Source: a virus
Lineage: Duplodnaviria; Heunggongvirae; Uroviricota; Caudoviricetes
Virus record (IMG/VR): IMGVR_UViG_2861079508_000001
Direction: 5' to 3' (one strand)
DNA: 64,000 bases
Part shown: positions 1,678 to 62,997 of the stretch, piece by piece
Numbering within the stretch: position 1 is the first letter of the stretch
Layout of the letters: every line of letters begins with the position of its first letter
The notes under the pieces: generated by a model
The model's database searches: none
What the model was told of the DNA's origin: nothing
Seen by the model: only the letters and a program-made list of their open reading frames with translations
Position numbers and translations under genes: made by a program

Positions 1678-1718
1678 ACCAACTCCTAGCTAACAGATGA
1701 AAGTATTCTTACAAAAAA

Positions 1719-1744
1719 CTAAGTATGTATCTACTTATCATTTT
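1719..1744 (-). promoter_or_regulatory. motif 2 element (TACTTATCA family)
   Basis: CTAAGTATGTATCTACTTATCATTTT upstream of gene 901..1677. Confidence 0.45.
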
Positions 1745-1802
1745 AGGCGCAATAGTTCCCTATACGAAGATGCCGGGCTTATAGTCTGCCCGGCATTCAC
1801 CA

Positions 1803-2216: not shown

Positions 2217-2449
2217 GTTGGCTTCCCTTTATTTATATTTATCGCAGGTATTAGTTAATCAAAACACGAGCAGTGCCACAATAATTAAATGGCGTACTAT
2301 TTCTTATGGTTATTAGTTTCCTAGTAACTTTACCGACCATAAACTAAATCAACAAAGCTGACATATTAACTAAATTTAAGTACCATTTTTCGCACACTTG
2401 ACACTTGCCGCGTCTAAACTGTTCATCCTATATCAACAGAACAAAAAAT

Positions 2450-3595
2450 ATGAAATACATAAAATCTTCATCGTTGCTGGCATTAACTTTGCTTTTTAGC
2501 TCTGGATTCGTTAACGCAGACAATAAACAAACGCTGATAGAAGCCGCTACCGCAGGGGATACCGCAGCACAAAGTGAGTTAGGGACAAATTATTTTGATG
2601 GTATCAATGGTTTTGATAAGGATGTAGTTGAGGCCAAGAAGTGGATTGATCTCGCTGCAGAAAAGGGAGACAAAGTAGCATATTATGCACTTGGGGTTAT
2701 GTACACATTTGGCGAGGGTGTAGATAAAGACTTAAATAAAGCAGTTGAGTACTACAAACTTGCGGGAGATGCTCGTGAAGGTAGAGCCTATAACAATCTT
2801 GGTGCTATTTATCAAAAGGGGATGCTTGGTAAAGTAGATCATGCGCTCGCCATTAAATACTTCAAACTAGCCTCTGATGCCGGGTATGTTAAAGCTAGCT
2901 ACCTTCTTGGTGCGTATTACCAATATGGTAAAGGTGTACAAAAGAGTTATAAAAAAGCTTTTACTTATTACAAAAAAGCGGCGGATCAAGGTAGTTCAGA
3001 TGGCATGTTCGCATTAGGCACCTTATACGATGACGGTTTAGGTGTTAAACGCAACGATGCCGAAGCAATTAAGTGGTATAAAAAAGCTGCTGAACTCGGA
3101 AACGCCGATGCCATGACAAATCTTGGCATTATGTATGAGTATGGTGAAGGGGTTAAAAAAGACTATAAAAAAGCAGCTGAGCTTTATCAGGCTGCTTGTG
3201 ATAAAGAAGATAAAAATGGCTGTGATTACATTGCAGAACTGAAAGAAAGCGGCAAATATCGAGCGCCGGCTTCCAAAGCCAAAACAAAATCCGCCACCCA
3301 GCGACTTATTGCTAAATCCATTGATAAGGGCGTTAACGCTACATTTACCTGGCAGGGTGATGATGCTACCTTCACCGCTAATGATGGCAAAGTTGACTGC
3401 ACCTTCCTGAAGGATTTTTCAGAGAAAGGAGGCAATCTGGCTACCTCGTTTGTTTGCACCGATAACGTTCAAATCATACTGAAGCAATTCAGAGATACCA
3501 AGAATGCCTACCTCGCGGTAATGACTGACAACTTCAACACAGAAGTTAAATCATTTTCGGTCAATGTGTACGTGACTAATACTGGTTCAAACTAA
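2450..3595 (+). CDS. secreted Sel1-like repeat (TPR-like) protein
   Basis: Start moved to internal ATG giving signal peptide MKYIKSSSLLALTLLFSSGFVNA; at least 6 tandem ~36-aa repeats with the Sel1 pattern (A..YY..A..QG...A...LG.MY..G.GV.KD...A..WYKKAA). Confidence 0.65.
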   Translation: MKYIKSSSLLALTLLFSSGFVNADNKQTLIEAATAGDTAAQSELGTNYFDGINGFDKDVVEAKKWIDLAAEKGDKVAYYALGVMYTFGEGVDKDLNKAVEYYKLAGDAREGRAYNNLGAIYQKGMLGKVDHALAIKYFKLASDAGYVKASYLLGAYYQYGKGVQKSYKKAFTYYKKAADQGSSDGMFALGTLYDDGLGVKRNDAEAIKWYKKAAELGNADAMTNLGIMYEYGEGVKKDYKKAAELYQAACDKEDKNGCDYIAELKESGKYRAPASKAKTKSATQRLIAKSIDKGVNATFTWQGDDATFTANDGKVDCTFLKDFSEKGGNLATSFVCTDNVQIILKQFRDTKNAYLAVMTDNFNTEVKSFSVNVYVTNTGSN

Positions 3596-4768
3596 TGCTG
3601 CTATGCCTTTTACCTTGCTTAAAAGTTCAAGCTGTCGTGAGTAAGGTTTTGCGCAATAGTAGGCTTTGATAATCTGCCCCGGGGTCGCATCGCCGGGGTC
3701 GAGTCCTTCCTCGCCCAAACATGCAATTTTCACATTAAGACCGATACTGGTCAGTCGCCTGGCTGCGGCCATAGTGTTTCGTATAGCTTGCTTTTCACTA
3801 TCCCACATCATGATCACATTACGTAATCCACGCGCCTTGAGCGTCAGGAACGCGCCCAACTGATCTTCTGCATCCTGAGTGGTGTTACCAGATAGATGCA
3901 TCCCGAACGTTCCTATTGGTTCCACGTAATCGCGTAATGTTTCTTCGTCAAAAATAGCTCGTTTGACCCCCATAACATCGAACGCCCCCTCACAGACAAC
4001 TACAGTCTGTTTGCCGACTGCATTGTGGCCGTTGTAGAGAAACTTACCTGAAGCTGGAAGCTGCATAGGAAAGAGGTAGCGGCGTTCTGCTGTACCGGTA
4101 ATGTCTCGTCCTTGAAATGTCTTCATTACCCCATCCAGATCGTAAACCGGTATCAGTATTCGCATATCGAAAATCTGTCCTTTAACCTGATCTGTATACG
4201 GATCTACATAAGCGTGCTTGCCTTCGACGCAGTATCGTAGGTCAAAATACTTTGCCATTTCAGGCGATATATTTCGTTCAACCAGATAGTCTGGAAGATG
4301 GCCATCTATAGGAAGATCGTAATGACGAGGGAGTGCAACTGGTCCCTCTAACTCGACTGTGCTTGCAAGCACTATCTCTTCTTTCTTTGGTGCCCACCCC
4401 TGGGAAAGAAGAGCGTTCTGCACATATTCCTCGAACTGTCGTCGTGATTTACCGCTGTAGTGCTTGAGGAAGACCAGCTTATTGAACTGAATCTCTTCGG
4501 GATGATCACCAGCGAAGCATTTACCGACGCCACTGGTCAGATTGAAATATACCTTCCAGTTGGAGCTGCCGCATACCGGACACTCCTTGATATTCACTTC
4601 ACGACCGCGAGTACTCACGCCTCCACGTCGATAAACGATACCTTCAGTATCCAACCATTGTTCAAAATCTAATTCGGTAATTAGCTCTTTCAGCTCGCTC
4701 ACGATAATTCCACTTTTAACAGGCAATATTGTGACCAACCTAAATGTTGATATAACATAAAGGCTCAT
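3587..4768 (-). CDS. DNA primase (zinc-ribbon + TOPRIM)
   Basis: CPVCGSS...C zinc-binding motif followed by TOPRIM-like VVVCEGAFD and MMWDSE acidic motifs; start uncertain (track start is GTG inside a hairpin; first ATG used here). Confidence 0.55.
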   Translation of the reverse strand: MSLYVISTFRLVTILPVKSGIIVSELKELITELDFEQWLDTEGIVYRRGGVSTRGREVNIKECPVCGSSNWKVYFNLTSGVGKCFAGDHPEEIQFNKLVFLKHYSGKSRRQFEEYVQNALLSQGWAPKKEEIVLASTVELEGPVALPRHYDLPIDGHLPDYLVERNISPEMAKYFDLRYCVEGKHAYVDPYTDQVKGQIFDMRILIPVYDLDGVMKTFQGRDITGTAERRYLFPMQLPASGKFLYNGHNAVGKQTVVVCEGAFDVMGVKRAIFDEETLRDYVEPIGTFGMHLSGNTTQDAEDQLGAFLTLKARGLRNVIMMWDSEKQAIRNTMAAARRLTSIGLNVKIACLGEEGLDPGDATPGQIIKAYYCAKPYSRQLELLSKVKGIAALV

Positions 4769-6209: not shown

Positions 6210-6225
6210 AAACAAATTGTTTTCT
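6210..6225. promoter_or_regulatory. motif 1 operator-like palindrome (AAACAAATTGTTTTCT)
   Basis: In the 43-bp gap upstream of the helicase gene start. Confidence 0.5.
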
Positions 6226-7256: not shown

Positions 7257-8024
7257 ATGGACGATTTATCGGTATACGCGAGATCATTGGATAAGGCTAA
7301 ATACTATGTTTACTGTCTCTATGATACAGAAGACAAGATGAAAAGACCGTTTTACATAGGAAAAGGCAAATCGACTCGTTGTCTCGATCACATCAAGTAT
7401 CCCGATGACTCTCCCAAATCCATGCGGATCAAAGAACTTTTGGCTAATAAAAAATTAGGCATAGATATACTTCGTCATGGTATGGATGAAACCACAGCCA
7501 AACTTGTTGAGGCGACATGCATCGACCTTATGGGGGTCGGAGAGCTTACGAATAAGGTACGAGGAAGTGGTTCCATGATGGGCAGAATATCACTGGACGC
7601 CTACCATCACTTAGTGCTGCAAGAGGAAACTGAAATTGCTCCTGAGCACGCCGGTCTTGCCTTCCTGCTAAACAGCACCTACAAGTCAGGAATGTCCGCT
7701 CTGGCATTATATGAGGCTACGCGTGGCGTATGGGCAAAGGTTCCAAGAGACGAGAATCTCAAATATGCCTACGCTACATATGGTGGGCTGATAATGGAAG
7801 TTTATCAGATTGAATGCTGGGTCAAAGCCGGTTCTCAGCAGTACTTTACAAGGGATATAGCTCTTGGCCCCGACACAAAACGTTATGAATTTGTTGGCAG
7901 AATAGCCGATGAGCATATTAGAAAACTGTATGTAGGCAAATTAATCAAGAAGCCACCAAGCTACGGTAGCCCTTTTGTGAAGGTTGGGGTGGTTAGGACT
8001 GAACATAGTGTTAGCGCGGCATAA
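7257..8024 (+). CDS. GIY-YIG family nuclease (possible homing endonuclease)
   Basis: N-terminal VYCLYD-x9-YIGKG-x5-R...H matches the GIY-x(9-11)-YIG motif; gene is inverted relative to all neighbours and preceded by a large non-coding region. Confidence 0.5.
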   Translation: MDDLSVYARSLDKAKYYVYCLYDTEDKMKRPFYIGKGKSTRCLDHIKYPDDSPKSMRIKELLANKKLGIDILRHGMDETTAKLVEATCIDLMGVGELTNKVRGSGSMMGRISLDAYHHLVLQEETEIAPEHAGLAFLLNSTYKSGMSALALYEATRGVWAKVPRDENLKYAYATYGGLIMEVYQIECWVKAGSQQYFTRDIALGPDTKRYEFVGRIADEHIRKLYVGKLIKKPPSYGSPFVKVGVVRTEHSVSAA

Positions 8025-9138: not shown

Positions 9139-9155
9139 GAAACAACTTGTTTTCT
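9139..9155. promoter_or_regulatory. motif 1 operator-like palindrome (GAAACAACTTGTTTTCT)
   Basis: Upstream of parA, next to TATATAATTATCG. Confidence 0.5.
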
Positions 9156-17551: not shown

Positions 17552-20500
17552 TTACAGAAGGCCAATTCTTACTCGTAGGACGTTGTTATCGTCATAAACG
17601 TCAATCCGCTGACCATTTATGACCAGTCGCCCATTACCCCCGCTATTACCGTTGATCTCAAGCGTTCCATTTTTGCCGAACCGCCATCCAGATCTACCGC
17701 TAACAAAATTGGTAGATTGCAGATCGCCTACTTTTGCATTGGTGATTGTGCCATCCTTGATATACGCACCATTCATATAGGCGATACTGTTTTCGATAAC
17801 AAATGGCGTGGTGATCTTCCCGTTAACAGAGTTGACCAAACCAAACCTGTCAGCCTGCACCAAAAACTGAGAAAGGCCAGTGGTGTCGATACCAAGCGCA
17901 ATACCAGCAACATACTTCTGCCCTCCGCTCGTTGAAGTTTCCATTTTCAACGTCCACGCGGTTGACACTTTTTTGTTGGTATCAGCAATAGCTGTTGCCT
18001 GCTGTTGAATTGTCGCGGTATTTCCATCCACCTCTGCTTTCAGAGTATCGATTCGCCCACTCAGAGCATTATCTGCCTGCGTTCTCGCTGTCGTTTCAGT
18101 TGTTACCGCCGCGGAAATGTTGGCTGCCGTTTGAGACTCTAAGTTTGTGATTTGAGTCGCCAATGCAGCATCTTGCTCTGTACGCGTTTTCGTTTCGGTT
18201 GCTACAGCCGCTTTAATATCCTCTTTGTATTGAGAGGTCAGCTTGGTGATCTGAGACGACAACGCCGAGTCAGCATCAGTTCGAGCCTGCGTTTCAACTG
18301 CAACGGCCGCACTAATATCTTTCGCTGTCTGTGCTTTTAAACTTGAAACCTCTTTTGTTAAAGCGGTATCACCATCAGCACGAGCCGTTGTTTCTCTGGC
18401 AAGAGATGCCTCGAGATCATTAGCTTTTGCTGTAAGAGACGAAATCTGAGTGGACAATGCACTATCGGCATCAGTCCTTGCCTTTGTCTCTACAGCAACC
18501 GCTGCGGCAATATCAGTTCCGGTTTGTGCTCGCAGGCTGTTAATTTCTCGTGAGAGCGCCTGGTCAGCACTTGCTCTGGCCTCCTGCTCCTGAGTGATGG
18601 CAGCGGATATATCACCGTCAACCTTTGACTGAAGCTGGTTTATTTGTTTGGCTAACGCAGAGTCCCCGCTTGCTCGGGCCTCCTGCTCACTACGTATTGC
18701 AGCAGAAATATCATCATCAACCTTTGCCTGAAGTTGGGTGATCTGGCTTGCCAGAGCCGAATCTTCCGTTGCTCGGGCTTCTTGCTCTTCCTTAATAGCT
18801 GCGACGATATCGTTGCTTACTTTCGACTCAAGCTGAGTGATCTGTGTCGTCAGAGCTTCATCGGCAGATGTGCGAGCCTCCTGCTCTGTACTAATCGCCG
18901 CGCTGATATCTCCTTCAAACTTAGATTGCAGCTGAGTGACACGCTTTGCCAACGCTTCATCGCCATCGGCACGAGCGGTGGACTCTTCCAGAATACTGGC
19001 CTTAATGTCTTCGCCAATTTCTACGCGAATTTCCTCAACCTTCGTGGCCATTGCAGACATATCATCAGCAAAGGTTTTCTGTGTTGTTGCGATCTTCGCG
19101 TTATTGACCATCTGCTTGTGCTGGTCTTCATCTTGACGAAGAGCTAGGTCAATATTTGTTTTGGCTAACGCCTCAATGTTCGTAGTCAGTTCTGCACTGG
19201 CACGATCGACCTCTGCAACCGTCTTTTTCATTTCTTCAACGGCAGCGGAGCTTTCCTCTACCGTTGACTGCAACACTTCCAGTTGTTTAGCGTTTGCAGC
19301 ATCGCCTTCAACACGAGCCTCGCTTTCCTTAGCAATAAGAGCCGCCGCTTCATCTCTTGCAGCCTTTATTGCCTCGACTGTATTAGCGAGAGCTTTATCG
19401 TGTTCAGATACGGTGTTTTCGATTTCAACAATTGCAGCATCAGTAGCATCAATTTTTTCAAACGCTTCATTGACCTTGTCGATCGTTGCCGAAACCTCAC
19501 CTTTAAGCTCGGTTTGTGCGTTCTCCAAAGCATCGCTACGCTCGTTGAATTTTATTTCAAAACCCGCGAGGTTATCGCTGAACTGCTTATCTAATTCAGC
19601 TATATCTTCCTTAACGTCGTTTACCGACCCCTCCAAAGATTCGACGCTCTGGTTGATATGCTCATTTAACTCGTCAACTGCTTCTTGAGAGGCTTTGCTG
19701 TTGATGTCCTCAAGCAGAGCCTGACCAAGCTCGGAAGATGTAATTTTGCCAGCCAGGAACGACAGTACATCGCGAGTTGTCGCCTCTGTACCCAAGTTTG
19801 AGTTCGGAGGGCTTAACATACCTCGCTTGTTCGATGCTCGAACCCAGTAATACCACGTTTCGCTATCCCCAAGACCAGCATGTGTAAAGGTGGTGCTTGC
19901 AGACTCTGCGATCAGTTTCGCCGTATCCAGATTGTTGGTCTGGGATGCGTAAACATTAATGTGATCAAGGTCTACCGAATCTGGATTAACCCAATTCAGT
20001 ATCACATTACGATAGTCTCCAACGGCCGTTAATGACGTTGGTGCATCCGGCGGTGTCATTGTGCCCAGCACCTGATAAACGGTACTGATAATTTCTGTTT
20101 TTTTACCGTTGAATGAAACCGCATACAGTTGGAAGTCGTAGCGTCCATTCTCCGCGACATTAACGATTTCGTATTGTTCTTCGGTTACACGCGCCGATTG
20201 CCAGTTCGATACATTGTTTTCATCAGAACGTCGCCAACTGATCCAATACTCTGGAGATTTCCCTTCCCATGTTGCAGTCAGTTTTACTGACAGGTTGCCC
20301 GGGCTTGAGAGGTAAGTCCCTTCAGTGATTTGCAAATTAGACGGCTTGGAGTAAGTCGGGTCCAATACCGTCGTATTCTGCGGGATAAGCGTTGCACCAT
20401 TGTCGATCGCCTCATATTTAGACGGATTGTTTTCAACAGCGGTGATGTCAAAGCTACCCGACGTTTCCCCCTGAGCGATGTTAACGATGCGAACGCGCAT

Positions 20501-41163: not shown

Positions 41164-41204
41164 AAACAACTTGTTTACTGCATTTTCTAACCAACTTGTT
41201 TTCT
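41164..41204. promoter_or_regulatory. two motif 1 copies (AAACAACTTGTTTA; CCAACTTGTTTTCT)
   Basis: In the intergenic region upstream of the small terminase gene and downstream of the wHTH gene. Confidence 0.45.
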
Positions 41205-41595: not shown

Positions 41596-42486
41596 TTATG
41601 CCGGTAAAGCAATTTCTAACGGTTTATCCAAAGGTTGTTTGTCGAATGCCAGCAGTGGCAGCGTGTCAGGCAGTCGACGACCAAAGTCAGGGTTTCGATA
41701 CACCCCATACAACGGAGACGTAAAGCTCAGGTTGTGAATGTCCTTGAGCAACTTCACAATGCAGGCCTCGTCCACCAGACTGTCGGCAATGTCCTGAATC
41801 GTCGTGCCACGATTCCGCCCAGCTTTTGCCAGGGAACTGTTCTTGTGGTAGTCCGCCACCAGATCACGCAGTGCACGGCGACGACGAGACTCGCTCATTG
41901 CGAACAACTCTTTGACGATCGCCTCGTTATCACCCGGGTCGGAACGGAAATGGCGCTGGAATACACGCAGTGCACTTTCATAGCTCTTCGGTCGCTCAGG
42001 GCGGATGAACTTAAACCCTGCTTTCATGGCGAAGGGATTGTATTTGCTCATCGAGGACTGGATCTCAATGATTGGCCGGTCATGCATCCTGCTAACCAGG
42101 TTAATCATTCGATAAGAGACGCCTACGCCACGATACTGAGTATCCACAACTGAGCGACTGATCACCGCAAAGTTGTTATTCACGTACCGACCCCAGTACT
42201 GGTTAGCCACGGTGGTATTAGTGGTTGGTTTCAACTTAGGAAACATGCGGTGGCGAGGTGCCAACAGTAGTTTCGGGTAAGCCATAACCACGACGCCCAC
42301 CAGACGGTCATCAAGTTCGCAGCGATAGTAAGTTGGCGCGAAAGGTTTGCCGTCTGTTTTGTAGTGAAGCGACTTAAGAGCGTGCCAGTCCTCTACAGTT
42401 CCCTTTGTAACAGTCATTCGCTCCAGAAAGTCCAGATGACGCGGAAACTCTTCAGGGCGGTAGCGTTTAATGATGATGTCCGTCAT
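41596..42486 (-). CDS. GNAT-like acyltransferase-fold protein (function unknown)
   Basis: Segment VVDTQYRGVGVSYRMINLV...NPFAMKAGFKF resembles GNAT acetyl-CoA binding motifs A/B; 296 aa with long extensions; 4-bp overlap with upstream gene. Confidence 0.4.
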   Translation of the reverse strand: MTDIIIKRYRPEEFPRHLDFLERMTVTKGTVEDWHALKSLHYKTDGKPFAPTYYRCELDDRLVGVVVMAYPKLLLAPRHRMFPKLKPTTNTTVANQYWGRYVNNNFAVISRSVVDTQYRGVGVSYRMINLVSRMHDRPIIEIQSSMSKYNPFAMKAGFKFIRPERPKSYESALRVFQRHFRSDPGDNEAIVKELFAMSESRRRRALRDLVADYHKNSSLAKAGRNRGTTIQDIADSLVDEACIVKLLKDIHNLSFTSPLYGVYRNPDFGRRLPDTLPLLAFDKQPLDKPLEIALPA

Positions 42487-43148
42487 GAATGGACCTCATC
42501 GTGACTACCATTGTGATATTCCACCTTCACGCGTTCTTTGTAGTGCTTGGTGATCTGCATATCCGGGCGCAGCGCGTTCTTCAGGTCTTCGTGAGTCGTC
42601 GCCACCATTACCGTCGCACCAACCTTTCGAGCGGCACGCTGGAGGTTAGACGCCACAACCTGAGCGGTTACACGGTCGAGAACAGCGCCGAACTCGTCAG
42701 CAGCCCACACTTTAGCGCCTGACTCAATCAGTTTGGCAATCTTGAGACGATATTTCTGGCCGTCTGACATTTCAGAAGGCTTGCGAACAAACAGATATGC
42801 ATCGTTCAGACCAGCCATAGATAACAACCCAAGCGCATCACTGGTCGTTTTGCCCAACTGATCGATGACGTTAACCTCATTATCGAAGGTAAAATCATCG
42901 ATGGAGGCTACAGACAGCCCTTCATCCTTCATCTGTCGTTGCAACTCGCGCAGCACAACGGATTTGCCGGAACCGGATTGGCCGGTGATGTACACCACAT
43001 CGCCCTGCTTCACTTCCAGCTCCAGATTGTCGTAAAGCGTCCACTCTTTTTCGTCCAGGCCAAGCCCGAACGACTCAGCGATTTCCAACGTGCGCGTGGT
43101 TTTATTTACGCGTGTCTGAAACGATACGTTGATGATGTATTTGCTCAT
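42483..43148 (-). CDS. soluble ABC-type ATPase
   Basis: Walker A GQSGSGKS, ABC signature MSDGQKYRL, Walker B VWAADEF, H-loop TTHED; no transmembrane domain. Confidence 0.6.
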   Translation of the reverse strand: MSKYIINVSFQTRVNKTTRTLEIAESFGLGLDEKEWTLYDNLELEVKQGDVVYITGQSGSGKSVVLRELQRQMKDEGLSVASIDDFTFDNEVNVIDQLGKTTSDALGLLSMAGLNDAYLFVRKPSEMSDGQKYRLKIAKLIESGAKVWAADEFGAVLDRVTAQVVASNLQRAARKVGATVMVATTHEDLKNALRPDMQITKHYKERVKVEYHNGSHDEVHS

Positions 43149-43813
43149 GCAGCCATCTCCCCGGAAGAGATCTTCTCCGCATATGCCACAAATGCGTCTA
43201 CCCCGCTTTCTCCCGTCATTTCTTCCATGTGGGCAAGCAAATCACCAACAACAATGGCAGAGCCAGCAGGGAGCGTTTTAAAGCCCAATACGTCGACAAC
43301 ACGTACTTCTTCCGCTGCAACTTCACGACTGATCTCGGTGTGTTCATCCTTCTGTCGTTTAGTTTCTTCGCCAAGATCGATAACTAGCGAGTCGGTGTCC
43401 ATTTCTTCTGTCATACTGCCAACGAGAACATTCAACTCACGCTCTTCAAAGCCGAAAACCTCGATATCGTCCAGAACAAGCGACTCAAGCTCTTTCTGTA
43501 GCTTAATTGCATCGTAATCAATGCTGGCAAGTCGGTTATCTTCAAGGCGCTTCGCACGAACCTCGTCATCACTGAGATCATCGCGAACAATAACCGGTAC
43601 GCGCTCAAGTCCAGCAAAAATTGCAGCCTCACGGCGGCCGTGGCCAGTAATAATTACGTCGTTCTTATCGACCGTAATTGGCTGGTCAAATCCGCGCTTT
43701 TTAATGGCTGCGGCTAGATCTCGGATCTGCTGTTCATCATGCTTTTTGGCATTCATCTCATAGGGAATAAGATCTGCCGGGTCGCGATATACGATTTCAA
43801 ACTTTTTGGTCAT
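43145..43813 (-). CDS. ParB-like nuclease-domain protein
   Basis: ITGHGRREAA motif (ParB/Srx box); start set at ATG overlapping upstream stop (TAATG). Confidence 0.55.
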   Translation of the reverse strand: MTKKFEIVYRDPADLIPYEMNAKKHDEQQIRDLAAAIKKRGFDQPITVDKNDVIITGHGRREAAIFAGLERVPVIVRDDLSDDEVRAKRLEDNRLASIDYDAIKLQKELESLVLDDIEVFGFEERELNVLVGSMTEEMDTDSLVIDLGEETKRQKDEHTEISREVAAEEVRVVDVLGFKTLPAGSAIVVGDLLAHMEEMTGESGVDAFVAYAEKISSGEMAA

Positions 43814-44493
43814 TACATACGCTCCTTGTAGTAGTCGACCAGCCACACCAGAGCCTCACCAGCGTTCTCCATTTCATTACCGGTGTTAATAGCCTGCTCT
43901 TTGATGATGTTTTTTATGGTTTCTGCAACACGATCTGACGCATCGAAAGTTACTTTGAAGCGCATGGTCTGATGTTCCGCACCCACACGTTCGGTTTTCT
44001 CTCGTTTGTCGGTATCGACAGGCTCATCACTACCACGAGACAACGCCTCCAGTGCTTCAAGGTCGATTGCCGCCTCTTTTGCTAAAACCATCGAGATTTC
44101 GTCGTCATACGGGGCGATTTCAGACAGTTGATAGTCAAGTTCTGACTGAATTTCTTCAATGAAGCGTTGCAATGCGATTTGGTCGTCTTCACCGTATCGC
44201 TCGTTGTCCACCAGTGACATCTGTTTAGCTACGACATCGCTAATTTTGCCCACAGAAAGCACCGGAACCGTTGAAATTCCTTGCTCAATAGCAGCACGCC
44301 AGCGATGTTCGCCGCCGAGGATTTCAAAAAATCCATCTTCAAGTTCACGAGCCAAAATTGGCTTAAAAAAGCCCAATTTTTCGATAGAACCTTTCAGTTT
44401 TTCAAAATTCTGCGCACCAACCGAATTGGTGTTCCAGGTATTCGGGCGAAGGTTGGCAACATCAACCTGCAAAATCGTGATTTTTACATCCAT
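43813..44493 (-). CDS. ParB-like nuclease-domain protein
   Basis: LRPNTWNTN and ILGGEHRWRAA motifs (ParB N-terminal domain boxes); start set at first ATG. Confidence 0.6.
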   Translation of the reverse strand: MDVKITILQVDVANLRPNTWNTNSVGAQNFEKLKGSIEKLGFFKPILARELEDGFFEILGGEHRWRAAIEQGISTVPVLSVGKISDVVAKQMSLVDNERYGEDDQIALQRFIEEIQSELDYQLSEIAPYDDEISMVLAKEAAIDLEALEALSRGSDEPVDTDKREKTERVGAEHQTMRFKVTFDASDRVAETIKNIIKEQAINTGNEMENAGEALVWLVDYYKERM

Positions 44494-44507
44494 TTTATTG
44501 CTACAAT

Positions 44508-44536
44508 ACACTAAGTAACCACTTACTTATTATAAT
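44508..44536. promoter_or_regulatory. motif 2 element in divergent intergenic region
   Basis: ACACTAAGTAACCACTTACTTATTATAAT between ParB-like gene start and helicase gene. Confidence 0.45.
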
Positions 44537-44575: not shown

Positions 44576-46135
44576 ATGACTGTTCGGATTGTATCTAACG
44601 CAGTAAATGCGCTTATTTCTGGCGCAGATGACAAGGTAAAGCAACTGGTGCAGCAAATGTTGAGCTACGAAGTCGAGACTGGCGACTGGAAGGGCACAAG
44701 CACGATGTTCAACTGGAGTAAAAACTCGTTCCCTGCTGGCTTTGCCAAGCCTGTAGCGGCGAACTTGAACAAGGCGGGCATCAAATGTGTTCATATCCGC
44801 AAAGACAAAGCCCCGGCGCTTGGTAAACCAAATCCGGCGGTTAACCCATTCCCATACAATCCTGATTATGCGTATCAGGATCAGACTGTGGAAACACTGG
44901 TTCGAGAGGGAATGATGATTGCGCAGATCGCTACTGGTGGCGGGAAATCTAACGTTGCCTGCAAAGCAGCTGCACGTATCGGTCGAATGACATTATTTTT
45001 AACAACCCGCTCTGTTCTGATGTTTCAAATGGCCGAAAACTTCCAGAGATCCATCGACTACCGCGCCGAAAATGGCGAACCGTGGTTAAAAGACCAAAAG
45101 GTTGGAGTCATTGGCTCGGGTGAGTTCCAGGTATCACGACATATCAACGTCGCTACAGTTCAAACTCTTGCAAGTTTCCTCGAAGAACCACCACGCGATG
45201 CAACACCAGATAAGAAAAGCTACCACCTCAAACGTCGGGAGTTGGTGAAACGCTTCCTTTCAAGTGTCTCTCTTCTTATTCTGGAAGAGGCGCATGAGTC
45301 TTCAGGCTCAAATTTCTATGACATCGCCAGATTATGTGTGAACGCAGACTATCGTCTGGCGCTTACAGCCACGCCGTTCATGAAGGATTCGACGGAAGCC
45401 AACATGCGCCTGATGGCGGTGGCCGGGCGAATTGAAATTAAAGTCACAGAAAAGTACCTGATTGATCGAGGCATTCTGGCAAAGCCGTACTTCCTTTATC
45501 ATAAAGTTGCCTACAAGCCAGACGAGGCCAGAATCAAGGCCGAACTTGCCAACAAACACCTCAATTTTAGAGTTGGTATGAGCACCGCCTACCAAAAGGC
45601 TTATCAGTTGGGGATCGTGTATAATTTGGGACGTAACGAGGCCATTGTTCGCGAAGCATTGCTCTATAAGCAACATTCTCTCAATTGTATGACTCTGGTT
45701 CGTCTTAAACGCCACGGGCAAATCCTGATGGAAATGATGAAAGAGTCCGGCCTTAGAGTTGACTTCATCTATGGGGAATCTAACCAGGCGACAAGGCAAG
45801 CAAAGCTGAACAGTTTAGCGTCTGGAGAAATAGATGTTTTAATAGGCTCGACTATTCTGGATGTCGGTGTTGATGTGCCAAGCGTTGGTGCGGTCATTCT
45901 TGCTGGTGGTGGGAAAGCAGAAGTTGAAATGAGGCAGCGTGTCGGTCGTGGCTTACGAGCCAAAAAAAATCAGGCAAACGTGTGTTTTATCACTGATTTC
46001 ATTGACATTAGCAACAAATACCTGTTGTCTCACTCTTATGAGCGAAAACACATCATCGACACCACACCTGGCTTTGCAGAAGGTGTATTGCCTATTGATG
46101 GAGCATTCGATTTTGGAGTTCTGAAACGAGATTAG
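44576..46135 (+). CDS. superfamily-2 DNA/RNA helicase
   Basis: Motif I ATGGGKS, motif II LEEAHE, motif III LTATP, motif VI QRVGRGLR; 519 aa; RBS AAGGAAAGAGG upstream. Confidence 0.7.
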   Translation: MTVRIVSNAVNALISGADDKVKQLVQQMLSYEVETGDWKGTSTMFNWSKNSFPAGFAKPVAANLNKAGIKCVHIRKDKAPALGKPNPAVNPFPYNPDYAYQDQTVETLVREGMMIAQIATGGGKSNVACKAAARIGRMTLFLTTRSVLMFQMAENFQRSIDYRAENGEPWLKDQKVGVIGSGEFQVSRHINVATVQTLASFLEEPPRDATPDKKSYHLKRRELVKRFLSSVSLLILEEAHESSGSNFYDIARLCVNADYRLALTATPFMKDSTEANMRLMAVAGRIEIKVTEKYLIDRGILAKPYFLYHKVAYKPDEARIKAELANKHLNFRVGMSTAYQKAYQLGIVYNLGRNEAIVREALLYKQHSLNCMTLVRLKRHGQILMEMMKESGLRVDFIYGESNQATRQAKLNSLASGEIDVLIGSTILDVGVDVPSVGAVILAGGGKAEVEMRQRVGRGLRAKKNQANVCFITDFIDISNKYLLSHSYERKHIIDTTPGFAEGVLPIDGAFDFGVLKRD

Positions 46136-46137
46136 TT

Positions 46138-46416
46138 ATGAGCGAAAAGAAAACAACTTATTGTCAGGTAGCATTGTCTGATAAGGCCAATGACAAACTT
46201 GGAAAGTTTCAAGTGAAACTAAAAGAAAAAAATATCAAAATGTCTAAGGCTGAAGTCATAAATACCATTCTGGAACAATTGACAATGGCCGACTTTGACA
46301 AGGTTATATCTTCTGTCGGGGCTTCCGCTAAGACTCGTGAGAAAATCATGCGTATCTATGAGAACTCTAATATGACAAAGGAAGATCTCGAAACGCTATT
46401 AAGCAGATTAAAATAA
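46138..46416 (+). CDS. hypothetical small protein
   Basis: 92 aa starting 3 nt after helicase stop; charged helical; possible DNA-binding. Confidence 0.4.
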   Translation: MSEKKTTYCQVALSDKANDKLGKFQVKLKEKNIKMSKAEVINTILEQLTMADFDKVISSVGASAKTREKIMRIYENSNMTKEDLETLLSRLK

Positions 46417-50286: not shown

Positions 50287-50307
50287 GATTAATTCCTTAT
50301 CGTAAAT

Positions 50308-50322
50308 AACAAATTGTTTTCT
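50308..50322. promoter_or_regulatory. motif 1 operator-like palindrome
   Basis: Minus-sense layout GATAAT - 8 nt - AGAAAACAATTTGTT - RBS - ATG of gene 49804..50286. Confidence 0.55.
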
Positions 50323-50636
50323 TGTTGGTGTTAATTATCGTTGTACGAATAAGGCGTCAAAGTGGAAAGTTGCGGTAGCCGGACGGGAACAGGTGGGTTT
50401 GTCGGTTGCCTGGAGGTAAGAGGTTGGTGTTATTAGCCTGAGGGAAACAGGATGGTCATTTAAGACCACCAATGCTGGTGGCCTTAATAATTATCGCCCG
50501 ATTACGCTAAGGATCTTTTCCTCAACTGATTTGTTGTTGCGACTAAACTGCCTTGCGTATCTGATGACAGAAGAGGCGTTTTGCTTTCTGACCATCTCGG
50601 CTCTTTCCTTCAGGCGTTTCTTGAAATCGCCCATAT

Positions 50637-51067: not shown

Positions 51068-51083
51068 AGAAAACAAATTGTTA
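51068..51083. promoter_or_regulatory. motif 1 variant (AGAAAACAAATTGTTA)
   Basis: Upstream of gene 50637..51011. Confidence 0.45.
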
Positions 51084-51095
51084 TCTGGCTTAATA

Positions 51096-51972: not shown

Positions 51973-51988
51973 AAACAACTTGTTTTCT
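51973..51988. promoter_or_regulatory. motif 1 operator-like palindrome
   Basis: Between TATTATTTA (-10-like) and ATG of gene 51650..51961. Confidence 0.55.
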
Positions 51989-52445: not shown

Positions 52446-52458
52446 AAAGCAATCCTTA

Positions 52459-52474
52459 AACAAGATGTTTTCTT
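52459..52474. promoter_or_regulatory. motif 1 variant (AGAAAACATCTTGTTT)
   Basis: Between GATAAT and RBS AAGGA of gene 52116..52445. Confidence 0.5.
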
Positions 52475-53049: not shown

Positions 53050-53900
53050 GCTTCTTCGCTATACATGTTGTGTTTTATCTGTCTCAACCTCTCTATAGGC
53101 GTTAATGCTCACTCCTTCCAGAATGTTCTATACGGCAACTATTTCTGTTGGTGAATTGGGTGTGTTGTTCTCTCTGTCGGTGTATGTGGTTTCGTTCGTT
53201 TTGCGGTGGTTCTTCTATGGGGTGTTCTCGTCGTTTTGGTGATTGTTCTTCTCCGTGTATGGAGTAATGGCAGGTGGGCGATTCCTTTCGTTGTTGTGTT
53301 TGAGTTGTTTGTCTGGAGTGTGTGAAAGGCTTTTGCAGTTATTCGTGTATTGGGTAATGGCATTTCCCGTGATTGTTGTGTTTCGTGTCTTTTGGGATTG
53401 AGAGAAACCTTGCGGTTACAGGCTTCGTTGGGGTTTCAGTGATTCTGGTGTTCTTCGCTGTTTGGGGAATGGCGTGTCGTGGGTATCGCGCGTATGAATG
53501 TTTTCGGATTGCCTGTGAAAGTTAGGTTGGTTGTCCGGTAGCCTGGGGAGAAGAGGTGGGTCTTTTCGGTAGCCTGCCATAAAGAGGTTGGTTGTTTTTG
53601 GAAATGGCATTTGTGTTATTTAGTTGTTTTGTTATGCCTGAAAATAAGTTGTTTATATGGTTGTGTAACGCAACGGGAGCGATTTTGAGCGTGTGTTTTT
53701 GTTGGTAGTGTGTTGGGTCGTCTGTGGTGAAAATTGGACGCTGTGGCGCTGTCTGCTGCGTAGAGTTACGGGTATAAGCAGTGATGTGTGAAAACGTCAA
53801 TTTTTTAGACCAAATCGGGTGAAAGCGTTGATGTTTCGTTGATCTGTTATTCAGTTGTTTTCTTGATTGTATAAACAACTATAACTTATTGATATTTAAG
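53050..53900 (+). repeat. GT-skewed non-coding region with periodic GGnTAATGGCA-type repeats
   Basis: Plus strand almost exclusively G/T-rich; recurring TGGAGTAATGGCAGG, TTGGGTAATGGCATTT, GGGGAATGGCGTG, TGGAAATGGCATTTG at ~85-130-bp spacing; also CGGTAGCCTGGGGAGAAGAGGTGGGT duplicated and related to 50400-50430. Confidence 0.5.
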
Positions 53901-54956: not shown

Positions 54957-55021
54957 AAACAATTTGTTTTCTTATATGACTTATTATCTCAATCAACAAA
55001 AGGTAGAAAACAAATTGTTTT
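54957..55021. promoter_or_regulatory. promoter region with two motif 1 copies bracketing GATAAT
   Basis: AAACAATTTGTTTTCT (54957-54972) and AGAAAACAAATTGTTTT (55005-55021) upstream of gene 54703..54951; ~35 bp from metG terminator. Confidence 0.55.
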
Positions 55022-55104: not shown

Positions 55105-57138
55105 TTACTTAACCTGGTGGCCAGGTTTAGCACCAGCATCCGGGCTTAACAGGAAGATATCTTTCCCGCCGGGGCCAGCAGCCATCACCATGCCTTCAGA
55201 GATACCGAAGCGCATTTTACGTGGTGCCAGGTTAGCCACCATAATGGTGTGACGACCAATCAGTGCCTGTGGATCTGGATAAGCGGAACGGATGCCTGAG
55301 AAGACATTACGCTTTTCACCACCGAGATCCAGCGTCAGGCGAAGCAGTTTGTCAGAACCTTCTACAAACTCTGCGTTTTCAATCAGCGCCACGCGCAGGT
55401 CAACTTTGGCGAAGTCGTCAAAGGTGATAGTTTCCTGAATCGGGTCGTCAGCCAGTGGGCCAGTTACCGGTGCGGCTGTGGCTTTCACTTCTTCTTTGGA
55501 TGCTTCCACCAGTGCTTCAACCTGCTTCATATCGATGCGGTTATACAGTGCCTTGAACGGATTCACTTTATGGCCCAGCAGCGGTTGCTGGATACCATCC
55601 CAGGTCAGTTCTGTATTCAGGAATGCTTCTGCACGTTCAGTCAGTTTCGGCAGTACCGGTTTCAGGTACGTCATCAGCACGCGGAACAGGTTAATGCCCA
55701 TAGAGCAAATCGCCTGCAGATCGGCATCGCGTCCTTCCTGCTTTGCCACCACCCACGGAGCCTGTTCATCAACATAGCGGTTAGCCAGGTCAGCCAGTGC
55801 CATGATTTCACGGATAGCTTTGCCAAATTCGCGGCTTTCCCATGCTTCGCCAATCACTTCAGCGGCATCAGTAAAGGTTTTGTACAGTTGCGGGTCAGCC
55901 AGTTCGCTTGCCAGCACGCCGTCAAAACGCTTGTTGATAAAGCCTGCATTACGGGAGGCCAGGTTAACCACTTTGTTAACGATATCGGCATTCACACGCT
56001 GAACGAAATCTTCCAGGTTGAGATCGATATCATCAATGCGCGAAGAGAGTTTCGCAGTGTAGTAGTAACGCAGGCTGTCGGCGTCAAAATGATTCAGCCA
56101 GGTGCTGGCTTTAATAAAGGTGCCGCGAGACTTGGACATCTTCGCGCCGTTCACCGTCACATAGCCGTGAACAAACAGGTTGGTCGGCTTGCGGAAGTTG
56201 CTGCCTTCCAGCATGGCAGGCCAGAACAGGCTGTGGAAGTAAACGATATCTTTGCCGATGAAGTGGTACAGCTCGGCGGTGGAGTCTTTCTTCCAGTATT
56301 CGTCGAAGCTGGTAGTGTCGCCGCGTTTGTCGCACAGATTCTTGAAGGAACCCATGTAGCCAATCGGCGCGTCCAGCCAGACGTAGAAGTATTTGCCCGG
56401 TGCGTTCGGAATTTCAAAACCGAAGTAAGGTGCGTCACGGGAGATATCCCACTGTTGCAGGCCAGATTCAAACCACTCCTGCATTTTGTTTGCCACCTGC
56501 TCCTGCAACGCACCGCTGCGGGTCCATGCCTGCAACATTTCGCTGAAAGAAGGCAGATCAAAGAAGAAGTGTTCGGAATCACGCATTACCGGTGTAGCGC
56601 CAGAAACCACTGATTTCGGCTCGATCAGTTCCGTCGGGCTGTATGTCGCGCCGCAGACTTCACAGTTATCGCCGTATTGATCCGGCGCTTTACATTTCGG
56701 GCATGTGCCTTTTACAAAACGGTCCGGCAGGAACATGCCTTTTTCCGGGTCGTACAGCTGAGAGATGGTGCGGTTTTTAATAAAACCGTTCTCTTTCAGG
56801 CGAGTATAGATAAGCTCGGACAACTGACGGTTCTCTTCGCTGTGCGTCGAGTGATAGTTGTCATAGCTGATGTTAAAGCCTGCGAAATCAGTCTGATGTT
56901 CCTGACTCATTTCGCCAATCATCTGTTCCGGTGTGATACCAAGCTGCTGTGCTTTCAGCATGATTGGCGTACCGTGGGCATCGTCGGCACAGATGAAATT
57001 AACCTCGTGGCCGCGCATTCGCTGGTAACGAACCCAGACATCAGCCTGGATGTGCTCCAGCATATGGCCGAGGTGGATTGAGCCGTTAGCGTACGGCAGC
57101 GCGCACGTCACCAGAATTTTCTTCGCGACTTGGGTCAT
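55105..57138 (-). CDS. metG: methionine--tRNA ligase
   Basis: 677-aa product from the ATG at 57136-57138 (track ORF is 43 codons longer from an upstream alternative start); HLGH and KMSKS class-I motifs; sequence I recognise as Escherichia-type MetG. Confidence 0.95.
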
Positions 57139-57295
57139 AGTAGGCATTACTTCTTTGTAGTGAAAAGGGGCTTGATAGTAACAAAATGGCCTTATGTCTG
57201 CCATGTGATAACAGCATTTCTCATAAATGATTAAATGTCGTAGCTGGAGTACACTACAAGGCGACAATTGCGCAAATTAAAATAAAGGAGACGGG

Positions 57296-58396
57296 ATGAG
57301 CGAGTCCAAATCGCCGGATGCCCTGAGAGCAATGGTAGCCGGTACGCTGGCTAATTTTCAGCACCCAACCCTGAAACACAACCTGACTACGCTTAAAGCG
57401 TTACACCATGTTGCGTTGATGGATGACACACTGCATGTCGAACTAATCATGCCTTTCGTGTGGAATAAGCCTTTTGAAGACCTGAAAGAGCAATGTAGTG
57501 GTGATCTGCTCCGTATCACTGGCGCAAAGGCTATTGACTGGAAGCTGTCGTACAACATTGCCACGCTTAAGCGCGTCAAAAACCAACCAGGCATTAATGG
57601 CGTTAAGAACATTATCGCCGTCAGCTCAGGCAAGGGCGGCGTGGGTAAATCCTCCACGGCGGTAAACCTGGCACTGGCGTTGGCTGCTGAAGGTGCGAAA
57701 GTTGGTATTTTGGATGCCGATATCTATGGTCCATCAATTCCAACCATGCTGGGCGCGGAAAACCAACGTCCAACCTCACCGGACGGTACTCACATGGCAC
57801 CTATCATGTCTCATGGCCTGGCAACCAACTCTATTGGTTATCTGGTCACCGACGACAATGCAATGGTGTGGCGTGGACCGATGGCCAGCAAGGCGCTGAT
57901 GCAGATGTTGCAGGAAACACTGTGGCCTGATCTGGACTATCTCGTTCTCGATATGCCACCGGGCACTGGTGATATTCAATTGACGCTGGCGCAGAACATT
58001 CCTGTAACTGGTGCGGTTGTGGTAACTACGCCGCAAGACATCGCGCTGATCGATGCGAAGAAAGGCATTGTGATGTTCGAAAAAGTCGAAGTGCCGGTAC
58101 TGGGTATCGTTGAAAACATGAGTGTGCATATTTGCAGTAACTGCGGTCATCACGAGCCAATTTTTGGCACCGGTGGCGCACAGAAACTGGCCGAGAAATA
58201 CAACACGCAGTTGTTAGGCCAAATGCCACTTCATATCTCTCTTCGTGAAGATCTGGATAACGGAACACCAACCGTTATTAGTCGTCCAGATAGTGAATTT
58301 ACGGCTATTTATCGTGACCTCGCAGATCGCGTTGCTGCCCAAATGTATTGGCAAGGTGAAGTAATACCTGGCGAAATCGCATTCCGCGCAGTGTGA
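57296..58396 (+). CDS. apbC: iron-sulfur cluster carrier ATPase ApbC/Mrp
   Basis: P-loop [10 protein letters not shown], CxxC (CSNCGH); divergent from metG as in the Escherichia chromosome. Confidence 0.95.
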
Positions 58397-58583
58397 TAAA
58401 AAGGTGGTGCTTTTGCCGTTACGCACCACCCCGTCAGTAGCTGAACAGGAGGGACAGCTGATAGAAACAGAAGCCACTGGAGCACCTCAAAAACACCATC
58501 ATACACTAAATCAGTAAGTTGGCAGCATCACCGAGCGCCAGCGGCGAACATATGAGCTTCGGAAATACTAGACATTCTTAACT

Positions 58584-58642
58584 CCGTTGTTTTCTAGTTG
58601 TGGTTATTTTCACAAATAAGAAAAGATAGAAAACAATTTATT
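58584..58642. promoter_or_regulatory. motif 1 half-sites (TTGTTTTCT ... AGAAAACAA) separated by ~32 bp
   Basis: Downstream of apbC; no obvious gene served; possibly degenerate. Confidence 0.3.
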
Positions 58643-58694
58643 TAAGGCCACAACTTATGGCCTTTATTTATTCATGCCGAAGGATTTGTAGCGT

Positions 58695-59820: not shown

Positions 59821-59849
59821 ATTAAGTAAGCATTTACCTATCATTTAAC
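59821..59849 (-). promoter_or_regulatory. motif 2 element
   Basis: ATTAAGTAAGCATTTACCTATCATTTAAC upstream of gene 59075..59779. Confidence 0.4.
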
Positions 59850-61526
59850 GCGTTTGAAAACGTATACGCTGACTGTGATCCCTGTGTCTTCAAACTCGTT
59901 GGTAAACGACTTCCCTCTGGCATAAACGTAATTATCCATCGTCATCCAGTCCAGTATTGGCGCAGTGCCCGGCAATACTGCTACAAGACGCCCGCCGACT
60001 TTCAGATGCCCCAGCGCAGCCAGCGTGTGCTCTCTATGACGACCAAGCGAGTACGGCGGGTTCATAACGATTTTGTCGAACTGATAACCTGCGTTGTCCT
60101 CAGACCACTTTATGAAGTCGCAGCAAATCGTGTTCGTATACCCTTTTCCACGCAGGATATCAGCGAAGAGAGGTGCGATTTCTATGCAGGTAACATCTTC
60201 CAGATCGGCGTCAATATAGGCCAGAAGATCCCCACGTCCGGCTTGAGGCTCCAACAGCTTCTCACCAGGCTTCAATTCAGTGGCTCTTGCAACGTACTCA
60301 GCAATCAAGCGTGGGGTAGGGTAGAACTGGTGTGATTTTGTATCCGGTATTAAACCGGTAGCCACAATCGTATTTAGCGTATGGCCGATGTCATACGGGA
60401 ACTGCCAGTGCTTTTTCTCCTGCACGCCGCCAATGAAGCTCAGTGTGCGCTCAAGCTCTTCCACCTGCGACTTCTGGAGAGCTGAATCAGAGAAGTACCA
60501 TACACCTTTGTCTTTGCTCAATCGCCCGTCACGAAGCGCAGTGCGAACCGGCACGGAGATCGTCTTCTGGATTAAACCGAACTGCTTTGGTGCCCGTGTT
60601 TTTGGCGCAGTTCGGCATGGCGCGGGGATTGCAGCAGGCATACTGTAAGCCAGCACCTCATTCAACTTCCAGGCCACGTCAGGATGTATTTCAAAGTGAA
60701 CGTTGCCGTTCTTGAACATCTTCACGCGCATCAGATTTCCATCGACGTTCATCCAGTCACCGGTCTGGCAGTCGTTTGCCCGATACGCAGCTGATAGCAC
60801 CTCAGCAGTGCGGTTGATGGTAATAAATTCTTTGTGCGCGAAGAAATGAAGCAAGACACGCAGATCGTCGATGTAGTCCTCTTTGCGATAGTTCACGCTA
60901 ACGCTGTCCCGCCAGAAATCAGAAATGCAGTCAGCGATTATCAGCCGCTCGCTGAAACCATTTGTCTTATTTGTCTTGTGCACAGGACTCAGCGCCTTAA
61001 ACAAGCCATACACGCGCTCAGAGAGATATTTGTGCCTGTCATTCAGCAAATTAAGCATCGTGGGTATGACCGTTTCTGCTTTGAACTCCGGTACACCAAC
61101 GAACTCTTTAACCTTCATCTGGTAGCCGGTTCTGTCAGTTTTGATGACTTCCTGTTTGCCCTCTATAAACTGCTCGCGCCACTCATCTCGACGGGAAGCT
61201 GGCATGATCAGCAAAACGTTAGTCATGTCCGTGACCTTCCTCCAGTACTCGGCCCAAATATTCTGTTTCACCCATTCCAGATCGACTTTATCCAACCAAC
61301 CTCGATTTAAACGCGAGCGATCTTCATCTGGTCGATGGTTTAGTTTCAGCAGGCGATTAATCATGTTGTGGCGTTCGTCGCCATAAACGAAGTTGTGAAC
61401 CTGATACATGAAGGCGATCTCTTTCTCGCACTCGGCCACAATTTCGTGGATAACGTTCATTTCCTGACGATAATCGATAGCAGTGTTTGAGCTGGCATCG
61501 TCGATGATGGAAAGGGCTGTATTCAT
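59841..61526 (-). CDS. N6-adenine DNA methyltransferase with large N-terminal domain of unknown function (no adjacent restriction gene seen)
   Basis: C-terminal region has FYPTP...LEPQAGRGDLL (SAM-binding motif I region) and IVMNPPY (motif IV NPPY); 561 aa. Confidence 0.65.
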   Translation of the reverse strand: MNTALSIIDDASSNTAIDYRQEMNVIHEIVAECEKEIAFMYQVHNFVYGDERHNMINRLLKLNHRPDEDRSRLNRGWLDKVDLEWVKQNIWAEYWRKVTDMTNVLLIMPASRRDEWREQFIEGKQEVIKTDRTGYQMKVKEFVGVPEFKAETVIPTMLNLLNDRHKYLSERVYGLFKALSPVHKTNKTNGFSERLIIADCISDFWRDSVSVNYRKEDYIDDLRVLLHFFAHKEFITINRTAEVLSAAYRANDCQTGDWMNVDGNLMRVKMFKNGNVHFEIHPDVAWKLNEVLAYSMPAAIPAPCRTAPKTRAPKQFGLIQKTISVPVRTALRDGRLSKDKGVWYFSDSALQKSQVEELERTLSFIGGVQEKKHWQFPYDIGHTLNTIVATGLIPDTKSHQFYPTPRLIAEYVARATELKPGEKLLEPQAGRGDLLAYIDADLEDVTCIEIAPLFADILRGKGYTNTICCDFIKWSEDNAGYQFDKIVMNPPYSLGRHREHTLAALGHLKVGGRLVAVLPGTAPILDWMTMDNYVYARGKSFTNEFEDTGITVSVYVFKRVK

Positions 61527-61538
61527 AATTACACCATT

Positions 61539-61554
61539 AAATAATTTGTTTTCT
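61539..61554. promoter_or_regulatory. motif 1 operator-like palindrome
   Basis: Upstream of methyltransferase gene, followed by GGTGTAATTATCG as at 50323-50340. Confidence 0.55.
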
Positions 61555-61667
61555 GATTGGTGTAATTATCGCAAACTTGAAAAGGCATAAAAGCTGCATT
61601 CATAGGCGTTACAGCAGATTTAAGGCGTAAAAATGGGGGCTGTCGCCCCCTGTCGACTGGTGCTGTA

Positions 61668-62252: not shown

Positions 62253-62268
62253 AAACAAGTTGTTTTCT
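62253..62268. promoter_or_regulatory. motif 1 operator-like palindrome (AAACAAGTTGTTTTCT)
   Basis: Upstream of gene 61668..62234. Confidence 0.55.
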
Positions 62269-62980: not shown

Positions 62981-62997
62981 AAAACAAGTTGTTTTCT
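62981..62997. promoter_or_regulatory. motif 1 operator-like palindrome (AAAACAAGTTGTTTTCT)
   Basis: Upstream of TerB-like gene. Confidence 0.55.

Follow-up and report, generated by a model that had tools for sequence, protein, structure and literature searches.

What does a mobile element gain from a methyltransferase that has no restriction enzyme beside it and that carries a large domain in front of its catalytic part? The question is raised by a gene at 59841-61526 in a 64,000-nucleotide (nt) stretch of Caudoviricetes DNA (IMG/VR record IMGVR_UViG_2861079508_000001; the whole stretch is referred to below as the window). The product of 561 amino acids (aa) joins a conserved N-terminal region, which includes the DUF4942 domain, to a compact methyltransferase domain. 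An initial annotation had offered three roles: self-protection against restriction, epigenetic regulation, or a restriction-like system in which the N-terminal domain is the effector. We favor the first. In this reading, to which we assign a probability of about 0.55, the product is an orphan N6-adenine DNA methyltransferase, carried by a mobile element and self-protective (anti-restriction), with DUF4942 engaging the substrate. Taking the parts separately, DNA is likely the substrate, and a protective purpose, judged from the genomic context, is somewhat probable.

The element could be placed by comparison with sequenced relatives. The 5.6 kb surrounding the gene are 100% identical to the E. 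coli plasmid pSLy3 (NZ_CP015915.1, 114 kb). Identity is 96-98% with phages Cyrano, CMS-2020a and PhiR41_1, and 88% with a portion of Salmonella phage SSU5. From these identities we identify the window as an SSU5-like phage-plasmid. The initial annotation had missed that the gene belongs to this known lineage and was already catalogued: the annotation is “DUF4942 domain-containing protein” for both pSLy3 and Cyrano and “putative DNA modification methylase” for the SSU5 ortholog, and the product of the pSLy3 coding sequence (WP_065304493.1) is 100% identical to the protein described here. Orthologs with 45-99% identity are found on contigs of ~100-115 kb across the Enterobacterales, in Escherichia, Salmonella, Klebsiella, Citrobacter, Cronobacter, Enterobacter, Xenorhabdus, Providencia, Morganella and Moellerella. 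The exact protein is present on 312 public contigs, including isolates of sequence type 131 (ST131), and falls into a cluster of 1384 sequences; no source checked gave it a functional name. A second orphan methylase, of the kind annotated as “phage N-6-adenine-methyltransferase” or Dam family, lies at 19082-19675 in pSLy3, about 1.5 kb past the window end.

The presence of the motifs NPPY and LEPQAGRGDLL had led to the gene being called an amino-methyltransferase, and this assignment was confirmed by evidence that goes beyond short motifs. In a profile search, the protein matched PHROG 6263, “DNA methyltransferase”, over its full length (aa 1-561, E = 1e-298), and it belongs to that group also by its orthologous position in pSLy3, Cyrano and SSU5. 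The best defense-database model for the catalytic domain was PADLOC mad2 (E = 2e-15, aa 394-523), in an alignment confined to the catalytic part (profile positions 265-401 of 492), and the C-terminal part also matched the PADLOC model for Type II methyltransferases, MTase_II (E = 3e-10). When a profile built from 25 family members was compared with the PDB sequences, the best solved relatives were M.TaqI (E = 5.6e-4) and EcoR124 HsdM (E = 6.7e-4). An AlphaFold model with a mean predicted local distance difference test (pLDDT) score of 82.5 showed a class I methyltransferase fold for aa 395-561. The motifs occur in the order X-I-IV-VIII, as in the gamma class. Thus, the gene product is a predicted amino-methyltransferase of the N6-adenine (gamma-like) type.

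The protein shares with the gamma-class enzymes M.TaqI and EcoR124 HsdM a motif X (QFYPTP, compared to (E/Q)(F/Y)(F/Y)TP), a motif I of the form LEPxAGxG, a motif IV (NPPY/F), a VIII-like C-terminus and the Rossmann fold. Unlike those enzymes, its catalytic domain comprises only about 167 aa and is terminal, whereas TaqI has a C-terminal target-recognition domain, and a conserved N-terminal region of 394 aa precedes the catalytic domain. The protein stops 69 aa past NPPY, and no C-terminal target-recognition domain is present; nor was an HsdS-like neighbor seen near the gene or an HsdS-like fold in the N-terminal region.

The initial annotation had described the N-terminal domain as ~350 aa long and without an assigned function. 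The second statement stands, while the first does not, since the region ahead of the catalytic domain spans aa 1-394. It also contains a match to Pfam DUF4942 (PF13708) at aa 140-295 (nt 60642-61109) that, at 72.2 bits (E = 5.8e-20), is well above the gathering threshold of 25 bits and places the protein in that family. In the AlphaFold model, the N-terminal hairpin consists of helices at aa 20-48 and 50-62, with low pLDDT at aa 1-17 and 69-77; disorder is predicted for aa 1-17. Conservation was assessed in an alignment of 140 members with a median identity to the query of 32%. Residues W95, L179, S180, H183, T185, N186, H277, N289 and L292 are invariant, and the mean majority fraction in the DUF4942 core (0.50-0.52) equals that in the catalytic domain (0.52). 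In sequence-specific methylases, the target-recognition domain is normally the most variable part of the protein. The conservation of the DUF4942 core points either to one common mode of substrate engagement or to an additional activity. A structure search found no fold relative of the DUF4942 region in the PDB, and no match to a known target-recognition domain, which would have made the protein an ordinary orphan methylase, was found. In the linker that follows the core, the conserved residues are I300, P301, R305 and F316, and the net charge has a family median of +4. A nuclease reading of the N-terminal domain was rejected for want of family or fold support: Pfam, NCBIfam, PADLOC and PHROGs gave no nuclease or hydrolase family anywhere in the protein.

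As the initial annotation had stated, no restriction endonuclease adjoins the gene. The five neighboring ORFs (open reading frames) had no nuclease, ATPase or defense matches in Pfam, NCBIfam, PHROGs or PADLOC, and a PADLOC scan of 53 window ORFs found no restriction endonuclease near the gene. Since neither the neighbors nor the window scan revealed a nuclease or defense partner, the gene is an orphan without a cognate nuclease. A cognate nuclease was equally absent from the orthologous phage-plasmids, from two IncH plasmid loci and from two fully inspected prophage loci. A Type II or IIG restriction-modification system was accordingly rejected, there being no nuclease in the protein, its neighbors or the inspected loci. 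A MADS-like system was rejected as well. The likeness to Mad2 (PADLOC PDLC04134) is confined to the catalytic part, no other mad genes adjoin the gene, and the mad3 and mad8 matches in the window correspond to a 221-aa ParB-like ORF (42483-43148) located 16 kb from the methylase gene.

A HMMER scan that used aa 1-330 as the query against 1.84 billion representatives found the N-terminal domain in 612 clusters at 50% identity. Among the matches listed, NPP[FYW] is present close to the C-terminus in 127 of the 130 relatives that reach at least 480 aa. Shorter DUF4942 matches (<480 aa) were considered as possible stand-alone domains, but the one that was checked had been cut by the end of its contig. 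Fusion of DUF4942 to a compact methylase is thus the rule in the family. IncHI1 and IncHI2 plasmids contain conserved full-length homologs with about 31% identity, which adjoin a ParB-helix-turn-helix protein and a Dam-family methylase (3561-4373 in IncH locus L003 and 7327-8151 in L004). Two chromosomal homologs are located in the early-right operons of lambdoid prophages, next to PF01555 and C5 methylases. Such multi-methylase sets occur with the gene at several of the examined loci, though not at the majority. Species-representative genomes yielded 242 relatives; of these, 80 were kept, almost all from Alpha-, Beta- and Gammaproteobacteria. In a census by Pfam family of 148 immediate neighbors at 37 further genomic loci, the commonest family was C5 DNA methylase, functions in phage replication and early development (DnaT, antiterminator Q, DnaB, SSB, RdgC and antirepressors) ranked next, and there was no restriction-enzyme family among the top 25.

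A close parallel is YdcA, a 187-aa protein from the leading region of IncF plasmids that is annotated as “class I SAM-dependent methyltransferase” or “putative adenine-specific DNA methylase”. Its catalytic module is homologous to the one described here (31% identity over 121 aa, E = 2e-14, aa 400-517). Like the 561-aa protein, YdcA is borne on a mobile element and has no nuclease partner, and it is flanked by an anti-restriction gene and by ssb/psiA. It differs in being a stand-alone module that follows a separate DUF3560 protein, YdbA, whereas the N-terminal region is fused in the 561-aa protein. In the IncF locus examined (L005, 5506-7477), YdbA is a 453-aa protein that immediately precedes YdcA. 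The possibility that YdbA represents the N-terminal domain in split form was rejected because it has no similarity to DUF4942. It is possible that minimal methylase modules pair with different accessory domains, either fused or separate. The catalytic module is also found inside giant phage proteins, in PHROGs whose profiles span about 1,400-3,900 positions, and in phage proteins with DarB-like or Lar-like anti-restriction annotations.

Two other element-encoded methylases without a nuclease, M.EcoGIX and P1 DarB, follow the same proposed logic of blunting host restriction (PMC7736820; annotation of the P1 record), but both were rejected as homologs. M.EcoGIX, a plasmid single-strand methylase, and M.BceJIII are beta-class enzymes with DPPY (PMC7736820), whereas the protein described here has the gamma order and NPPY. 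P1 DarB is a 2255-aa methylase-helicase, compared to 561 aa and no helicase here, and BLASTP gave no significant match (best relevant segment, E = 0.44). More generally, orphan methylases are common on large plasmids, and for one of them, a cytosine methylase of pKAZ3, protection from restriction has been demonstrated (PMC11602122).

Of the three roles, self-protection is best supported by this context, because the family resides on phages, phage-plasmids and conjugative plasmids where it adjoins orphan methyltransferases, and because the catalytic module is related to the IncF leading-region methylase that lies among anti-restriction genes. The restriction-like effector found no support in the form of a nuclease family, motif, fold or partner genes. 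Under the self-protective reading, the C-terminal 167 aa would be a minimal gamma-type catalytic module lacking a target-recognition domain of its own, and engagement of the DNA would be supplied by the DUF4942 region together with the basic linker and the small middle domain. The DNA of the element would be methylated during plasmid or lytic replication, and would thus reach the next host already protected against restriction systems with sites overlapping the modified positions. A shared palindromic operator probably links expression to an early or plasmid-maintenance regulon (see below).

Several points weigh against this reading. The protein scored below threshold with Pfam N6_Mtase (PF02384, E = 0.039), and rRNA adenine and m2G (N2-methylguanine) RNA methyltransferases scored nearly equally in the PDB searches. 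The net charge of the N-terminal domain is only weakly positive. This domain equals the catalytic domain in its degree of conservation and has invariant His, Asn, Asp and Ser residues, and such conservation, unlike that of ordinary, variable target-recognition domains, could reflect some other activity. Moreover, some related phage-plasmids contain truncated copies of 158 aa, corresponding to the first ~158 codons and 94% identical; one example is at 88284-88757 of plasmid NZ_AP028872.1 (protein P0283, 158 aa), which matches PHROG 16000. The methylase is thus lost or truncated at times, and the gene is dispensable. Finally, we found no characterized member of the family, and no methylation or protection experiments on any member in the literature. 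Nothing was found there on the function of DUF4942, which PMC6980539 tabulates for SRL/LEE-type islands at a distance of a few genes from YeeU/YeeV and KlcA-like anti-restriction genes; nor did literature on methyltransferases of pHCM2 or of SSU5 and phage-plasmids, on phage-plasmid methylomes or on DUF3560 yield anything on function.

A bolder version of the protective role is that DUF4942, instead of reading sequence like an ordinary target-recognition domain, is a conserved substrate-engagement module with a fold unseen in solved structures. This module would give the widespread family a single shared mode of action, either adenine methylation of low specificity or methylation coupled to structure or replication. 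We consider this unlikely. If true, the family would represent a broad-spectrum anti-restriction device common to temperate phages, phage-plasmids and IncH resistance plasmids.

Of the rival explanations, the best supported, though improbable in our judgment, is that the enzyme is an epigenetic regulator, whose methylation controls the replication or copy number of the element, its lysis-lysogeny switch, its gene expression, or host genes. The orphan gene has an operator-bearing, regulated-looking putative promoter, and regulation by methylation is plausible because this element and the IncH plasmids that harbor a homolog already carry a Dam-like methylase; regulatory roles of plasmid methylases have also been discussed (PMC11602122). 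However, the family extends over unrelated elements (siphovirus-like phage-plasmids, lambdoid prophages and IncH plasmids) that have differing regulatory circuits, which favors a generic function such as protection, and the gene is often found in a group with several further orphan methylases.

It is less probable still that the substrate is not DNA at all, but an adenine or guanine in rRNA or tRNA, or a protein glutamine, with DUF4942 binding that substrate; the enzyme could, for example, modify the host translation machinery. The NPP[YF] motif is also present in RNA N6-methyladenine (m6A) and m2G methyltransferases and in protein-glutamine methyltransferases of the HemK type. Consistent with such a substrate, there were weak NCBIfam matches to Erm/KsgA and PRK14968, the top Foldseek matches included Trm11, TrmN and RlmL, and relatives matched Pfam MTS. 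The stronger matches, however, were to DNA methylase models, QFYPTP aligns with the (D/E/Q)(F/Y)(F/Y)TP of motif X in HsdM and TaqI, and the gene co-localizes with DNA methylases and replication genes in prophages. The least supported explanation, and a very improbable one, is a bifunctional restriction-like or toxic enzyme comparable to Type IIG or MADS, in which the N-terminal domain is a second effector (e.g., a nuclease) and the methyltransferase confers self-immunity: invariant polar residues (S180, H183, T185, N186, D221, D262, H277 and N289), the location of H277 and N289 on a β-hairpin plus helix segment in the AlphaFold model, and the mad2 match could be taken to suggest it, but Pfam, NCBIfam, PADLOC and PHROGs contain no matching nuclease or hydrolase family, the invariant Lys expected of a PD-(D/E)xK site is missing, the spacing of His and Asn is by our reading unfit for a canonical HNH or His-Me finger, the mad3 and mad8 matches belong to the distant ParB-like ORF, and placement in a phage early region is typical of counter-defense rather than defense.

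The features of the gene, its product and the region upstream are listed in Table 1. The initial annotation had also proposed that the gene has its own promoter, controlled by a motif (motif 1), and this is supported at the sequence level by the upstream terminator, the extended -10 and a copy of the motif GAAAACAAnTTGTTT within the 141 nt that precede the gene. The terminator-like hairpin, in which the 188-aa gene upstream ends, is kept in SSU5 but absent in Cyrano. A sigma-70 scan made no call at the putative -10, because there is no good -35. The same architecture, TGnGATAAT...ACACCA, is repeated ahead of other minus-strand genes. The putative operator begins eleven bases past the -10. In the window, GAAAACAAnTTGTTT, which has the palindromic core AAACAAnTTGTTT, has 29 matches (about 18 sites) compared to 1.1 expected by chance, and nearly all copies have a GATAAT-like -10 on one side and a start codon on the other. 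This recurrence suggests a regulon of early or maintenance genes of the phage-plasmid under one DNA-binding regulator. By RNA folding, the inverted repeat upstream of the gene is lengthened to a 12-bp stem (-12.2 kcal/mol, z = -2.7) that encloses the putative operator and covers the GGTG Shine-Dalgarno sequence and the A of the ATG. The stem shows one compensatory change, from A-T to G-C, in phage Cyrano. Since its 5' arm overlaps the putative -10, however, this arm may not be transcribed from the putative promoter, and the region could be a protein-binding site instead of an RNA hairpin.

Table 1. Coordinates of the methylase gene, its protein domains and motifs, and associated sequence elements in the window.
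Feature	Residues (aa)	Position (nt)	Strand	Basis
Complete gene, DUF4942 + methyltransferase protein	561	59841-61526	(-)	ORF list; ATG start; stop codon 59841-59843
N-terminal helical hairpin, poorly conserved	1-80	61287-61526	(-)	AlphaFold; family conservation 0.26
DUF4942 core, conserved alpha/beta	81-300	60627-61286	(-)	Pfam; 140-member alignment
Basic proline-rich linker, isoelectric point about 11	301-325	60552-60626	(-)	Alignment; charge calculation
Middle domain, small alpha/beta	326-394	60345-60551	(-)	Accompanies methyltransferase module in other phage proteins
Methyltransferase domain, compact class I (Rossmann), predicted N6-adenine type	395-561	59844-60344	(-)	Motifs, profiles, AlphaFold
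Motif X, QFYPTP, HsdM/TaqI-like	400-405	60312-60329	(-)	Read from sequence
Motif I, LEPQAGRGDLL	425-435	60222-60254	(-)	Read from sequence
Motif IV, NPPY	489-492	60051-60062	(-)	Read from sequence
Motif VIII-like, FEDTGITVSVYVF (F..TG.TV...V), very C-terminus	545-556		(-)	Read from sequence
Inverted repeat, exact 10 nt, TAATTACACC (61559-61568) / GGTGTAATTA (61526-61535)		61526-61568	(-)	Sequence and RNA fold
Putative operator, palindromic motif copy GAAAACAAATTATTT, pattern GAAAACAAnTTGTTT		61539-61553	(-)	Motif scan; -10 to start codon interval
Putative promoter, extended -10-like TGcGATAAT		61565-61573	(-)	Read from sequence
Intrinsic-terminator-like hairpin GGGGGCGACAGCCCCC + T run, ends transcript of upstream gene		61635-61650	(-)	Terminator scan
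GAAAACAAnTTGTTT sites		6210-6224, 9140-9154, 41164-41203, 46149-46163, 50307-50321, 51069-51085, 51973-51987, 52458-52472		
GAAAACAAnTTGTTT sites, continued		53640-53654, 54957-54971, 55006-55020, 58629-58643, 61539-61553, 62253-62267, 62982-62996		

Downstream of the methylase gene, at a distance of 61 nt, are ORFs of 234 aa and 126 aa, annotated in Cyrano as Ead/Ea22-like and Eaa-like, respectively, with no same-strand terminator called between the gene and these ORFs; an IS1 scar then follows. The IS1 remnant is at about 58403-58477. Compared to Cyrano, about 3.9 kb containing S24 peptidase, Ea22-like, Eae-like and other genes are replaced by the IS1 fragment. Beyond it, at 55105-58396, are the cargo genes metG (methionyl-tRNA synthetase, full length) and apbC/mrp, both of which are also present in Cyrano; the copies of the operator motif at 54957-55020 flank this cargo. 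Two arrays of direct repeats of about 30 nt (GGTAGCCTG...GAGGT.GGT), at 50369-50456 (three copies) and 53532-53592 (two copies), have a spacing of 28-31 nt and are iteron-like, as in a plasmid replication origin.

Elsewhere in the window, the minus strand carries three tandem ORFs of about 220-233 aa at 42483-44511 that are probably ParB-N-like; Pfam ParB_N was matched by two window ORFs. The “MTase_II” matches at 43145-44511 are partial, covering N-terminal model positions of about 9-149, and we read these ORFs as ParB-like. On the strand opposite to the tandem ORFs, a 519-aa ResIII/DEAD helicase is encoded at 44576-46135, and its defense-like match is to a generic domain. A 255-aa ORF at 7257-8024 on the plus strand matched PD-T4-3, a candidate single-gene anti-phage defense unrelated to the methylase, over almost the entire length (PADLOC, E = 1.3e-23), so that a defense gene is present on the element as well.

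The gene is already on record and belongs to an ordinary class; the value lies in characterizing a large, widespread and conserved domain that replaces the usual recognition domain. Defining the target of the enzyme would explain unassigned m6A signals in the methylomes of carrier strains and would give DUF4942 a function. SSU5-like phage-plasmids and IncHI plasmids are vehicles for the spread of antibiotic resistance in E. coli, Klebsiella and Salmonella, and a methylase family common to both kinds of element could ease their crossing of restriction barriers.

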